Virus record (IMG/VR): IMGVR_UViG_2778261160_000005 | Coordinates: 1 to 23,035 of that record | Length of the DNA: 23,035 bases | Reading direction: 5' to 3' (one strand) | DNA from: a virus | Taxonomy: Duplodnaviria > Heunggongvirae > Uroviricota > Caudoviricetes | Shown here: positions 6,001 to 9,000 of the stretch, piece by piece | Layout of the letters: each line of letters starts with the position of its first letter | Position numbering within the stretch: the first letter of the stretch is position 1 | Program-made: the position numbers

Positions 6001-9000
6001 ATCCGGCGATTATTGAGTAAATTATGTTTCCATAAATGCCCCCACAGGGGCATTTGCAGTAATGAAATCAGGCGGTGAAAGTCCCAATAAAGGTTTCTAC
6101 TTTGCTGTCTTTGAATTTCTCAACAAGCAGATCACGAAATTCGTTAGCCATTTCTTCCTGGACTGCTTCCAACTGAATAATGCGCAGAACCAGTACAGGA
6201 CGATCGCCAGTGATAATGCTGAGGCGTAATTTAAACGGACGTTCTTTCAGACCTTCAAACGGAACGCATTTAAATTCAAATGCCACTGGCATAATATCTT
6301 TGGTCTTCGCTTCGACAGACTCCATCAGGGAGCGTTTTCCGCTGAAGTCATTATCTTCAAAATCAGCGGTCTGGTTTGCTTCAATCGTGATTTTACGGAC
6401 AGCCGCAGCCGCTTTTGTTGCCTGAATAGCGTCACCATTAGCATCAAAGCCTACAAGGTAGTCGGCCCAGTCTTCAATCCATTCTGCCAGTGACTTCTGG
6501 GAGTTACGCTCGCCGTTAACAGACAACAGAGCAGAGAACGGTGCTGTCTTTTTCAGTTTGAGAGTGGCGGTGTTATCTGCGTGACCTGGTTCATCAATAG
6601 TACCCAGGTTAAGCACACTGACGGCACGCATATTATCGGCATCGATAAAGCAGCGGGTGCCTTCATCTGCAAGATCTTTAGAATAACGGGTAAAGTCATC
6701 GATGCTGGCAGTGGAAAGCGCACCACGGAAACGGAAGCGATTTAAATTAAATTTTTCCAGATCATGAATGCGGAAGTTCTCAGGCAATGCCACAGCATCG
6801 GCACCAATCTTACTGATAATTTCATTAACACCCTGAGCAGAAATAAGGGCATGGATTTGATTAATTGCGGTTGCGTCTAAGTTCTGAGACATAATAAGTC
6901 CTCACTATATAAAGATATTCAGTGATGAGATAAATAATCAGTTTATTAAGAACGATATTAATGACCTGCTGCGCGTAGTTTTCCGTCAGGTTCACCGGCA
7001 AGAGTCAGTAATTGTCCCTGGTCTTCCTGCAGAATAGTCAGGCGACCACCGCGATTGACATACATCGGCGTTTCGGTGGTATCTTCTTCGGAAATTTTCC
7101 CGCGGTTAGTTGGGCGAACATATGAGAGTTTGTGTTTGATTTTCACACGGTTCTCATCAAACGGTTCGATTTCCAGATTGAGTGAGACCTTCCCTTTGGT
7201 TTTCGTGTTCATCACACCGGAAGCGACTTCACTTAGAACTGCGCCGATTTTGGTTTCAAATACGCCGCCGTCCAGCTCCCCGATAAATGCCTGCACATCA
7301 GTACTGCGTTCGCTAGCCATTTTGCTGCTCCTCATCATATCGACCCTGCAAGGTCGGTTGGTTTCTCCACAAAACAGAGAAGAACACCTGCGGTGGCAGC
7401 CGCCCGGATGGATTGGGTTATGAGCCCGTCGTCCGGTGATGCTCTTCTCTGTTTTGTAAAAAGGACGGTACCAGCCGGAAGCAAGGGTACAAGCTGGTAC
7501 CGCCAGGACTATACACAGCATAAAGTTGTGGTGCCGGGTGCCTCCCGGTGCCTGGCGAAGGTTGCACACCAGGCGGGTGGGTATCCACAGAAGGTCGACT
7601 GTCAGCCTCAACCTTAACCCGCGTGCGCTGAGCCGCATTCACCACAACGCTAAGGATTCTCTCTGGTTGAAAATACTTAGCTGTTATGTGCCTGCTTTTA
7701 GCCACATCAGGCGAGGTGGACCTGGTTATTCCCCAACAACAAGGATTCGGTTAATCTGGATATCCCCAACAACAATAAGAGTATTCAATGTGATCGCTGA
7801 ATTAACGGCAGCAATGACGGCTATTCGTGAAACAGCCCAGATTGCAAAACTAATGAACGAGGCAAAAACTCAAGCTGAAGTAAATGCGGCTATTGGTGAG
7901 CTGAACTCAAAGCTTGCGTCTATTCAGCGCGAATGCGTGTCTCTCGTTGAACTGGTGGGCTCTTATCAAGAAATAAATGCTTCTCTCAAAGCTAAAATTG
8001 CAGAATTCGAAAACTTTGAGGCTCAGACGGAAGGCTATATCCTTAACCAACTTGAGTCGGGTACTTTTGTATACGCGAAGGAGGTAATCGTTAACGGTGG
8101 CAGCATAACCATGCATCTTTGCCCAAAATGTTTTGGACAAAAGATAGTATCGATACTTCAACCATTCCCGGTTAGCGAAGATGAGCTTTTTCATAAAAGC
8201 AGGTGCCTCCACTGTGAAATAAGTTTCTGATGAATAAAAATCCGGATTACGTATCGCCTCCATCCATTGAGGAGTTGTCCAGAAAACTTAACGGCAATCT
8301 GTAGATTACTACTGTTGTGGATATCCAGATTGTTAAAGAGCTAAGCGTCCTGTAGGGCGCTTTTTTGTTGCTAACGAATCATCCTGGACTTTATATGCCC
8401 CAGGCGGCTACTTCGTGGGCGTCCTGCCTGTTCGTTGTTTCGCTTGGGTACATTATGTATCTCATAGGTACATTGTCAAGTATAAAAAAACCTGCCGAAG
8501 CAGGTTCATAAACATTGATTAGGCTTTGATTTTGTATCTTCTTGGTTTTCCTGAGAAAATCACTGTACCAATTATAGAGCAATTACCGTTGATCTTAATG
8601 TAAGGCTCAGGCCAGTTTGGGTTTAACGCTTTGAGATAACGCTGTGTCCCGTCTTCTATCAACCTTTTGAAGGTGGTTTCACCTGTATCGTGCATCAATG
8701 CAATAACGTCATCGCCGTGGCAGGCTGGTACTTCTGGATCGACAAAAATCATGTCTCCCGGACGGTACTCATCAATCATTGAATCACCAATCACCCTCAA
8801 TATATAAGTCATTTCGCCACAGGGTACAGGGCAGGGATACGTTTCTGTTGTGCTCAAATCAACCTCAGAATAGCCAACTTCTTTCCATGCTCCGGCCTGT
8901 ACCCATGATATGACAGGGACTAACGTTATTTTTTTATTAGTGATTGAAACATCAGGTTTTTTTGTGATGTTCGTTGTCTGGTGTTCTTGATCAAGCCATC

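Follow-up and report, generated by a model that had tools for sequence, protein, structure and literature searches.

A diverged STnc100/PasD-class RNA domain in the untranslated early-left leader of a lambdoid prophage

The stretch of DNA analysed here (the window) comprises positions 1 to 23,035 of the virus record IMGVR_UViG_2778261160_000005 in IMG/VR and belongs to a lambdoid prophage of the SfV/ST64B/LLS-like type, which has no N-like gene at the usual place. Gene annotation assigns cI to 8519-9193 (minus strand), cro to 9284-9484 and Q to 14988-15371, and the leftward early operon consists of yfdP (6958-7320, minus strand, ATG at 7320-7318), yfdQ, yfdR and the genes that follow. Between yfdP, the first leftward gene, and a rightward open reading frame (ORF) starting with GTG at 7790 lies a gap of 470 bp (7321-7790), which a preliminary description had proposed to be a non-coding structured RNA region heading the leftward early operon. 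Our analysis agrees with this proposal: the gap is the promoter-distal part of an untranslated, heavily folded RNA leader of this operon, read on the minus strand toward yfdP, that is from right to left starting at pL/oL (8436-8479), and the antisense of the rightward ORF (7790-8230) lies between pL/oL and the gap. On the minus strand the leader presents a chain of modules, namely a 32-nt motif, a helix termed P0, a pseudoknotted domain, a single-stranded stretch, a terminator and a Y-shaped hairpin. The centre of this chain is a diverged relative of the prophage small RNAs (sRNAs) STnc100/PasD and DicF, and neither an operator cluster nor a gene.

The position of pL/oL had to be revised. The preliminary description had placed the gap in the pL/oL leader region, while the real pL/oL is situated about 700 bp to the right, where a near-consensus promoter (TTGACA-16-CATAAT, 8479-8452, minus strand) is directed left just after the cI terminator (8507-8488) and is overlapped by two CI operators (8436-8452 and 8456-8472). 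Using the 17-bp palindrome TGTACC-N5-GGTACA as the CI operator pattern, matches were obtained at 9211-9227 (no mismatch), 8456-8472 (one mismatch) as well as 8436-8452 and 9261-9277 (two mismatches each); 7321-7790 contains no match even with three mismatches allowed. A consensus scan of 7321-7790 detected no promoter-like site on either strand. The notion that the region might be a cluster of CI operators or another DNA-level protein-binding site derives from three GGTACC/GGTACA cores in 7466-7502, a core that the true operators have as well. However, the cores that had been taken for operator-like build the stem of an intrinsic terminator, and mEp460-type phages, which differ in the annotation and organisation of their immunity regions, retain this stem. 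Moreover, the pairings of the region covary as RNA helices. With an operator cluster ruled out by the pattern search, we consider a DNA-level site next to impossible.

The repeats reported for the gap are present. The 15-bp perfect inverted repeat (7369-7383 / 7443-7457) extends to arms of 25 nt with 84% complementarity, the inverted repeat CGGTACCAGC / GCTGGTACCG is located at 7466-7475 / 7493-7502 and CCGGG-TGCCT-CCCGG at 7534-7548. The direct repeat TCCCCAACAACAA does occur twice, its coordinates requiring a shift of two bases to 7730-7742 and 7763-7775 (span 7730-7775). The region is GC-rich to a moderate degree, with a GC content of 0.53-0.59 compared to 0.38-0.49 in the flanks. We carried out the RNA folding that the preliminary description had suggested and obtained z = -5.9 for the 470 nt of the minus strand and z = -3.5 for the plus strand; none of 100 shuffles folded as well as the region.

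Coding potential was analysed with five orthologous leaders that share 73-81% identity with the window. Substitutions show no 3-base periodicity and are spread evenly over the three codon positions, indel lengths are mostly not divisible by three, open stretches reach no greater length than in shuffled sequences, and each candidate ORF is interrupted by stops or fragmentary in the orthologues. A Pfam search of the ORFs in the region gave no match. The earlier statement that the gap holds no convincing ORF thus withstands the substitution, indel, open-stretch and orthologue tests. A protein-coding gene, intact or decayed, would nevertheless agree with several annotations: the NCBI annotation pipeline PGAP calls a 'frameshifted hypothetical protein' pseudogene (window 7335-7645, minus strand), the SfIV and PhiR49_1 records annotate ORFs in the region, and PHROG 3651 and PHROG 33599 match a plus-strand ORF of 74 amino acids (aa; E-value 3e-49) and an ORF of 49 aa, respectively. 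Such PHROG matches, however, are what repeated ORF-calling on strongly conserved nucleotides would yield, and the orthologue tests reject the coding reading in spite of them and of the PGAP pseudogene; we therefore regard a gene at this place as highly improbable. The two PHROG families (3651, a 162-aa profile covering window 7055-7617 on the plus strand; 33599, 7335-7484 on the minus strand) comprise ORFs that overlap the RNA region and the antisense of yfdP. The ORF of PHROG 3651 needs a frameshift in the window, and the ORFs of both families are stop-interrupted in the orthologues; as protein families, both are probably spurious. ORFs and a 'frameshifted pseudogene' laid over a structured RNA represent a recurrent mis-annotation that merits flagging.

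The central domain of the leader (124 nt, 7648-7525; the RNA modules of the window's leader are all given on the minus strand) is a pseudoknotted fold of the STnc100/PasD class. It is closed by P1, a perfect helix of 9 bp (7648-7640 with 7533-7525), which is followed by an 'AAU' junction, the P2 hairpin (approximately 7636-7621) and the strand AAGGUUG (7615-7609), which forms the pseudoknot with CAACCUU in the loop of P4 (7564-7558). P4 pairs 7574-7567 with 7557-7550, and P5 (CCGGG-AGGCA-CCCGG, 7548-7534) abuts the 3' strand of P1. The relatives described below display the same order, with a variable insert between the strand that pairs with the P4 loop and P4 itself. Searching Rfam returned nothing at gathering thresholds, while reporting by E-value revealed a sub-threshold match to STnc100 (RF02076), which extends over 7678-7456, spans the full model (positions 1-206) and scores 40.9 bits, below the cut-off of 47. 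Its E-value is 1.5e-7 when 501 nt are searched and 7e-6 for the window as a whole, in which it is the sole such match. Equivalent sub-threshold STnc100 matches are found at the same place in SfV and in the Cronobacter phage phiES15, and Salmonella phage ST64B gives a partial match to model positions 31-147. The window also carries an exact copy of a 22-nt core, CACCGGGAGGCACCCGGCACCA, at 7549-7528.

Scanning IMG/VR with this core yielded 111 unique sequences in 37 clusters, which have little in common beyond the core itself. Across these roughly 37 diverse relatives the pairings of P1, P4 and the pseudoknot covary, as the covariance analysis proposed in the preliminary description showed. Within P1, one pair is GC in 17 and AU in 13 relatives and another CG in 11 and UA in 11, and no shuffle reached the covariation score of the helix. 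P4 and the pseudoknot were parsed sequence by sequence with a shuffle control, since MAFFT mis-aligned this part. Among the 37 relatives, the pseudoknot occurs as 28 and P4 as 29 distinct duplexes, and the pseudoknot has a mean length of 6.57 bp as opposed to 4.45 +/- 0.17 bp with shuffled loops, a difference of about 12 standard deviations. P5 is invariant by construction in a set selected by the core, and its stem changes in a compensatory manner elsewhere (GGUGG/CCACC in LLS and Kp4866-6, CCUGG/CCAGG in Qin) while the AGGCA loop is retained throughout. In the window, the 5' strand of the pseudoknot could also pair with a nested alternative partner, for which phiES15 shows no covariation.

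STnc100 and PasD, from Salmonella and pathogenic E. coli, have been reported as related, prophage-encoded sRNAs (bioRxiv 10.64898/2026.05.13.724894), and PasD is Northern-validated and Hfq-dependent (PMC8550237). Both have in common with the window P1 (UGGUG/CACCA), the 'AAU' junction, P4, the core CACCGGGAGGCACCCGGCACCA, the P5 hairpin with its AGGCA loop and a linker that leads into an intrinsic terminator. In contrast, P2 differs (GCGGCUCAGCGCACGCGGG in the window against CCCCCUGUGCGGAGGGG in STnc100/PasD), and the window, like early-left copies in general, carries helix P0 at the spot where STnc100 has a promoter before P1. The pseudoknot, supported here by covariation, was not seen on reading the structure line of the Rfam STnc100 model. 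The location differs as well, the domain of the window lying early-left between cI/pL and yfdP, in the leader of the early-left operon and not in the late region, while the late location expected of STnc100 is between Q and the lysis genes or downstream of stx. Typical members of the family are found between Q and holin genes, a late context verified by annotation for three 'late-type' copies only and also described in PMC12370729. By reading, late-type copies start at a promoter that ends about 7 nt before P1, for example TTGACA-17-CTAAAT. A targeted scan for sigma-70 sites upstream of the domain (scores out of 12) gave a mean of 7.87 for late-type copies, 5.6 for early-left copies and 6.65 for shuffles. 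Measured against STnc100 as an independent unit, the window thus has the terminator and no promoter, its best match of 6/12 being below the shuffle mean; neither the consensus scan nor the targeted scan found a promoter belonging to the RNA itself. PasB was considered as the identity of the element and is ruled out by its location among phage structural genes. Of the options that the preliminary description had left side by side, an sRNA is the one favoured by homology, as far as can be judged from the sequence.

The domain is embedded in further modules. Directly 5' of P1, helix P0 (GCUAAGUAUUUUC / GAGAAUCCUUAGC, 7681-7649) is kept in ST64B through compensatory changes (GAUAAGAGUU / AACUCUUAUC) and is a candidate RNase III site. 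On the other side, the domain is followed by a single-stranded stretch of 20 nt (UUUAUGCUGUGUAUAGUCCU, 7524-7505), which is unpaired in the centroid fold, is positioned like the 5' single-stranded part of DicF and qualifies as a candidate sRNA seed and candidate entry site for RNase E; the linker consensus UGCUGUGUGUAGUCUU is kept even where the terminator stems differ completely. The Rho-independent terminator (7504-7456) consists of a 13-bp stem (7504-7492 with 7476-7464) that holds the GGTACC repeat CGGTACCAGC / GCTGGTACCG, a 15-nt loop and UCCUUUUUAC; it folds with -24.3 kcal/mol (z = -4.2), and in the alignment to the Rfam STnc100 model it falls on the model's terminator. A coupling of domain and terminator in the manner of a riboswitch, through the P4 3' strand CGCCAGG and CCUGGCG at the terminator base, was considered and dropped as it is, by reading, unconserved in ST64B. 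The terminator is followed by the long Y-shaped hairpin (7460-7366; -48.3 kcal/mol, z = -7.3), which is composed of a basal stem of about 23 bp including the 15-bp repeat, a conserved arm CGACGGGCUCAUAACCCAAUCCA and a variable arm, and which exhibits compensatory changes at four basal pairs (GC/CG 8:8, CG/AU 8:6). This hairpin is a candidate RNase III site, or else a candidate 5' stabiliser or translational control element for the yfdP mRNA. A small hairpin (7358-7339), the Shine-Dalgarno sequence GAGGAG (7333-7328) and the yfdP start codon complete the leader; the piece 7358-7318 folded alone is not above chance (z = -0.55), and other leaders have a different small hairpin (GGCGGUGGCAGCCGCC) at the equivalent place.

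A second scan, for the pattern of the long-hairpin apex, gave 115 unique leaders in 36 clusters; the Y-shaped hairpin is present in 115/115 of them, the set itself having been collected by the apex motif of this hairpin. Nearly all leaders share the order of a P1 helix GUUGUGG/CCACAAC, the linker UGCUGUGUGUAGUCUU, a terminator (commonly of the form GGCGGUACCAG...CUGGUACCGCC-CUUUUUAC), the long hairpin, a small hairpin and the ribosome-binding site of the first gene. Between the P1 strands, 45 leaders carry an STnc100-like cassette, 26 the type located upstream of dicF in K-12, 19 the mEp460 type, 10 other sequences and 2 tRNA-like elements, and for 13 leaders no slot helix was found. As the content between the P1 strands varies among leaders, the domain is an exchangeable cassette rather than a fixed component of the leader. 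On the Rfam tRNA model, which has a cut-off of 29, the tRNA-like cassette of L200 reaches 43.9 bits and that of L218 reaches 28.7 bits; ARAGORN made no calls on the cassette variants, L200 and L218 included. In the mEp460-type cassette (mEp460 itself, L008, and 18 other leaders), a complementarity of 6 nt (GCUGAU/AUCAGC) connects the P2 loop GGCUGAU with the P5 loop AGAUCAGCA, which suggests a loop-loop kissing contact that replaces the pseudoknot of the window type. The pL-proximal leader of the window (8440-8370; AACAGGCAGGACGCCCACGAAGUAGCCGCC...) has its homologue in the first part of the ST64B leader, and in ST64B and L195 it runs on into another large cassette closed by CUUCGGGAGGGG / CCCCGCCCGAAG. 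Leaders of this kind seem to string several structured cassettes together.

The K-12 type of cassette connects the leader to the dicBF locus of the Qin prophage. There, the gap of 567 nt between ydfC and dicB contains a long helix, a cassette closed in the manner of P1, dicF, an STnc100-like domain and dicB, in this order. The cassette before dicF is closed by GUUGUGG paired with an imperfect CUGCAAC and, by reading, has a layout of P1, P2, pseudoknot (GUAUGG with CCAUAC) and P4 without P5 (L240, around 2750-2866). The STnc100-like domain of K-12 MG1655 Qin, which is unannotated and lies between the dicF terminator and the dicB start codon (L240 2933-3142; 34.4 bits, E-value 1.1e-5), belongs to the window's own subtype (GUGGUGAAUGCGGCUGAGCGCACGCGG ... 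CCUGGAGGCACCAGG). A profile of linker plus terminator built from 37 leaders has dicF as its sole match within 5 kb of Qin (E-value 1.6e-4). Over a stretch of 20 nt, intermediate sequences come close to identity with DicF, as seen in L237 with UUGGCGGUAUCAGUUUGUAC against UUUGGCGGUAUCAGUUUUAC in DicF, and on the Rfam DicF model (RF00039), which gives 76.7 bits for K-12 dicF, L218 scores 28.2 bits.

For DicF itself, a 190-nt form with a 5' end made by RNase III and a 53-nt form with a 5' end made by RNase E have been described, both deriving from the transcript of the repressor-controlled promoter dicBp (Ragunathan et al., PMC10448788). By arithmetic, the 5' end of the 190-nt form, 137 nt upstream of dicF, maps to the 3' strand of the helix before the cassette, the equivalent of P0, and the 190-nt form therefore consists of the cassette plus DicF. 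This is the same composition as that of STnc100 (domain, linker and terminator) and of the unit in the window. Furthermore, both dicBF and the window unit belong to a repressor-controlled early operon, both arrange a structured cassette closed by a P1-type helix, a single-stranded stretch and a terminator in that order, the terminator modules are related (UUGGCGGUA.CAG.UU...CCGCCCUUUUU), and Qin even has the window's domain subtype just downstream of dicF. On the other hand, the order of STnc100-like domain and terminator unit in the window is reversed relative to Qin, the Qin cassette upstream of dicF lacks the P5 of the window, and the downstream gene is yfdP in the window and dicB in Qin. 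In a duplex-energy test, pairing of the window with the start region of ftsZ was no better than that of shuffles (fraction 0.67), and the test did not separate real DicF from shuffles either (0.13). In a literature search combining DicF and STnc100, the papers retrieved did no more than list the two names, and as far as our searches went, the pseudoknot, the cassette slot and the link between STnc100 and DicF, together with the unannotated domain beside dicB in K-12, are undescribed so far. STnc100/PasD and DicF, which have been treated separately, seem to share one architecture and possibly one route of biogenesis; if so, this would offer a testable processing model for STnc100-type RNAs. K-12 CPS-53, from which the name yfdP originates, does not serve as a model, the leader being absent there. 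In its yfdO-yfdP gap (L133 5248-5604), similarity to the window begins 19 nt upstream of yfdP, and iteron-like repeats GATTTTGACGGGTCAGA fill the rest.

Taking these results together, the region is a real, conserved, structured non-coding RNA that is best classified as a diverged domain of the STnc100/PasD class joined to a DicF-type unit of seed and terminator. As to its function, we lean, if only by a little, towards a model in which the unit 7681-7456, organised like the dicF locus of Qin and situated inside the pL leader, yields processed sRNAs of the Hfq type. Upon derepression of pL, transcripts would run through the antisense of the accessory ORF into the leader, where part of them would end at the terminator (7457). 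Cleavage by RNase III at P0 and by RNase E in the single-stranded stretch 7524-7505 would then give rise to two RNAs, a long one (about 200 nt) and a short one (about 70 nt), the latter made up of seed, terminator hairpin and U-tail. In these products, the stretch 7524-7505 would act as the seed and the terminator hairpin with its U-tail as the Hfq-binding part, and both RNAs would bind Hfq and act in trans on mRNAs; the processing sites, the binding of Hfq, the action in trans and the targets are inferred. In read-through RNA, the Y-shaped hairpin, long enough for an RNase III substrate, would form the 5' leader of yfdP and might play a role analogous to that of the RNase III site in the lambda N leader.

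Several observations weigh against this model or limit it. The match to STnc100 remains, with 40.9 bits, below the cut-off of 47. The Rfam DicF model finds no match in 7200-8600 at E-values up to 10 and a single-sequence DicF search of the window found nothing; because both miss the window, the link to DicF is limited to position, architecture and the modest E-value of a profile confined to the terminator part. The single-stranded putative seed of the window also differs in sequence from that of DicF. Helix P0, with 13 bp and two mismatches, is short for RNase III unless it is stacked on P1. Transcripts from pL first have to cross about 700 nt of untranslated antisense RNA, and the model does not account for their escape from Rho. 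Lastly, because the fold is so elaborate and conserved, which is unusual for a plain base-pairing sRNA, the domain probably has an extra function beyond this model. The covarying pseudoknot and the cloverleaf-like layout, atypical of simple base-pairing sRNAs, hint at the binding of a protein or an enzyme.

The passage of RNA polymerase through the leader brings up the possibility of a cis-acting RNA for processive antitermination, similar to put or EAR, in which the domain or the conserved 32-nt leader motif (CCACCUCGCCUGAUGUGGCUAAAAGCAGGCAC, 7719-7688) would modify RNA polymerase so that it reads through terminators and escapes Rho without N. Between cI and the operon there is no N-like gene in the window, ST64B, LLS, SfV or phiES15; ST64B and LLS have gene-free gaps where N would be, and none of three ORFs that were translated (the rightward ORF of the window and the first leftward ORFs of SfV and phiES15) is N-like, that is arginine-rich. 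The leaders hold one or two intrinsic terminators, the late-type relatives likewise reside in an antitermination-dependent operon, between Q and the lysis genes, and the authors of the LLS genome paper have suggested a put-type mechanism for LLS (PMC12315714). By reading, the motif found at 7719-7688 in the window is located in LLS at the very 5' end of the pL transcript, starting about 10 nt after the pL-like promoter TTGACC-17-TAGATT. The motif occurs in 41 distinct upstream contexts and contains complementary segments (CCAC/GUGG and GCCUG/CAGGC) that interleave; because its stems never vary, covariation speaks neither for nor against them, which leaves antitermination by the motif without evidence of this kind. 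HK022 put, a cis-acting antiterminator RNA with two stem-loops in about 70 nt immediately behind pL (PMC9378689), resembles the window in that a lambdoid phage lacking N carries a structured RNA in its pL leader, upstream of terminators. Unlike put, the domain of the window is 124 nt long, pseudoknotted, about 800 nt away from pL and optional among relatives. A nut/put-like element had been among the early suggestions, but no similarity to HK022 putL was found, and neither a boxA nor an N-like protein was seen by reading, no formal motif scan having been made. The HK022 interval between cI and nun shares only chance-level word matches with the window, and an 11-nt identity (GCGGGUUCAGG) of putL with the P4 arms of some late-type STnc100 copies is within chance expectation, leaving no put homology. 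Furthermore, the domain is dispensable and exchangeable, being absent in 13/115 leaders and replaced by other, including tRNA-like, cassettes elsewhere. Autonomous read-through is also at odds with the promoter-like site and terminator that late-type copies have of their own, and with the recovery of related RNAs as discrete sRNAs (PasD validated by Northern blot, STnc100 described as a prophage-encoded sRNA). An antitermination RNA is thus improbable in our view, and the finding leaves the question of how N-less lambdoid phages bring RNA polymerase through long leaders studded with terminators.

A second alternative, which is compatible with the processed-sRNA model and not exclusive of it, would make the domain a tRNA-shaped module for processing, stability or decoy purposes, P1 and P5 mimicking the acceptor and T arms. 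A host factor such as RNase P, RNase E or another RNA-binding protein would define or protect the 5' end of the seed-terminator RNA, or would be titrated by the module. The cloverleaf-like topology fits this idea, with P5 abutting the 3' strand of P1 without a spacer and a gap of 3 nt between P1 and P2, and so does the presence of tRNA-like elements in the same P1-closed slot of L200 (43.9 bits) and L218 (28.7 bits). In addition, the window has four tRNA genes after Q, where other phages have the late-type STnc100. Precedents are the C4 RNA precursor of phages P1 and P7 and the M3 RNA of phi80, which are phage RNAs processed as RNase P substrates, as well as sRNAs from tRNA 3' external transcribed spacers such as 3'ETS-leuZ. 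These RNAs share with the window a cloverleaf-shaped 5' domain, a short single-stranded region and a terminator; the domain of the window, however, is not recognisable as a tRNA. Neither ARAGORN nor the Rfam tRNA model recognises it, the loop of P5 has 5 nt and not the 7 nt of a T-loop, and no CCA follows P1 in the window. We judge a module of this kind unlikely, without dismissing it.

A broader reading, which we put forward as conceivable yet doubtful, would take the helix GUUGUGG/CCACAAC as a fixed slot in the early leaders of N-less lambdoid phages for exchanged RNA cassettes, with STnc100, PasD and the 5' part of the 190-nt DicF forming one superfamily of tRNA-shaped, pseudoknotted 5' domains that bind a host factor and are more than base-pairing sRNAs. 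The cassettes exchanged would be several STnc100-like pseudoknot subtypes, tRNA-like elements, others, or none. If this were true, the factor bound could be RNase P or RNase E, RNA polymerase or another RNA-binding protein, and through this binding the domain would decide what becomes of the attached seed-terminator sRNA or of the polymerase during transcription.

Conserved relatives of the module chain occur in SfV, SfIV, SfII, ST64B, LLS, mEp460 and in Klebsiella and Cronobacter phages. Using the 601 bp at 7250-7850 as a query, most of the sequence was found in 891/5426 complete E. coli genomes. The P2 subtype of the window, searched as an exact pattern in one genome per species, was found only in Escherichia, Shigella and Enterobacter and in two contigs of metagenome-assembled genomes, and more diverged forms are present in Salmonella, Klebsiella and Cronobacter phages. 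The two contigs (L248 and L251) contain the enterobacterial prophage sequence although their bins are labelled Veillonella parvula and Collinsella sp., most likely a binning error. An unannotated and very common prophage sequence of E. coli and Shigella is hereby placed in a known class of regulatory RNAs.

The direct repeats TCCCCAACAACAA, which had been counted among the structures of the gap, are not part of the structured RNA unit. They lie in a separate conserved module of about 70 nt (7720-7790), directly before the GTG at 7790 of the variable rightward gene, and are rendered on the minus strand as TTGTTGTTGGGGA or TGTTGGGGA. In related loci, at least nine unrelated divergent ORFs begin downstream of the module, their start codons lying at a constant 69-71 nt from the CCACC motif. 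The module shows 87.6% identity in Klebsiella phages, and no sigma-70-like site was found in it on either strand. In 41 related contexts, the ORFs behind the TGTTGGGGA module include the 146-aa family of the window, ORFs of 144, 148 and 176 aa, a sieB-like ORF and peptides of 26-29 aa. The module looks like a shared control region or 5' untranslated region of a hypervariable slot, and the slot itself looks like one for accessory or defence genes. In the window, it holds the rightward accessory ORF of 146 aa (7790-8230, plus strand), which matches PHROG 1244 only, a family of unassigned function in PHROG, and has two CxxC motifs near its C-terminus. The RefSeq homologue of this ORF in L001 has 171 aa, the window copy ending earlier. 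Some phage records extend the ORF upstream into the RNA region, an extension that the PHROG alignment does not support.

Elsewhere in the window, the four tRNA genes (Met, Arg, Thr and Gly) are located at 15735-16044 (plus strand), downstream of the Q21-family antiterminator gene. Many related phages have a late-type STnc100 between Q and the lysis genes, which parallels the alternation of tRNA-like and STnc100-like elements in the early-left slot. To the right of cro and ymfL, a minus-strand block (10001-13449) encoding RusA, an Ash-family regulator and others is oriented opposite to the rightward operon and contains the C4 antisense RNA (12536-12623) and isrK (12648-12724). The isrK-C4 pair is directed rightward in SfV and L138, and the block may be inverted in the window.

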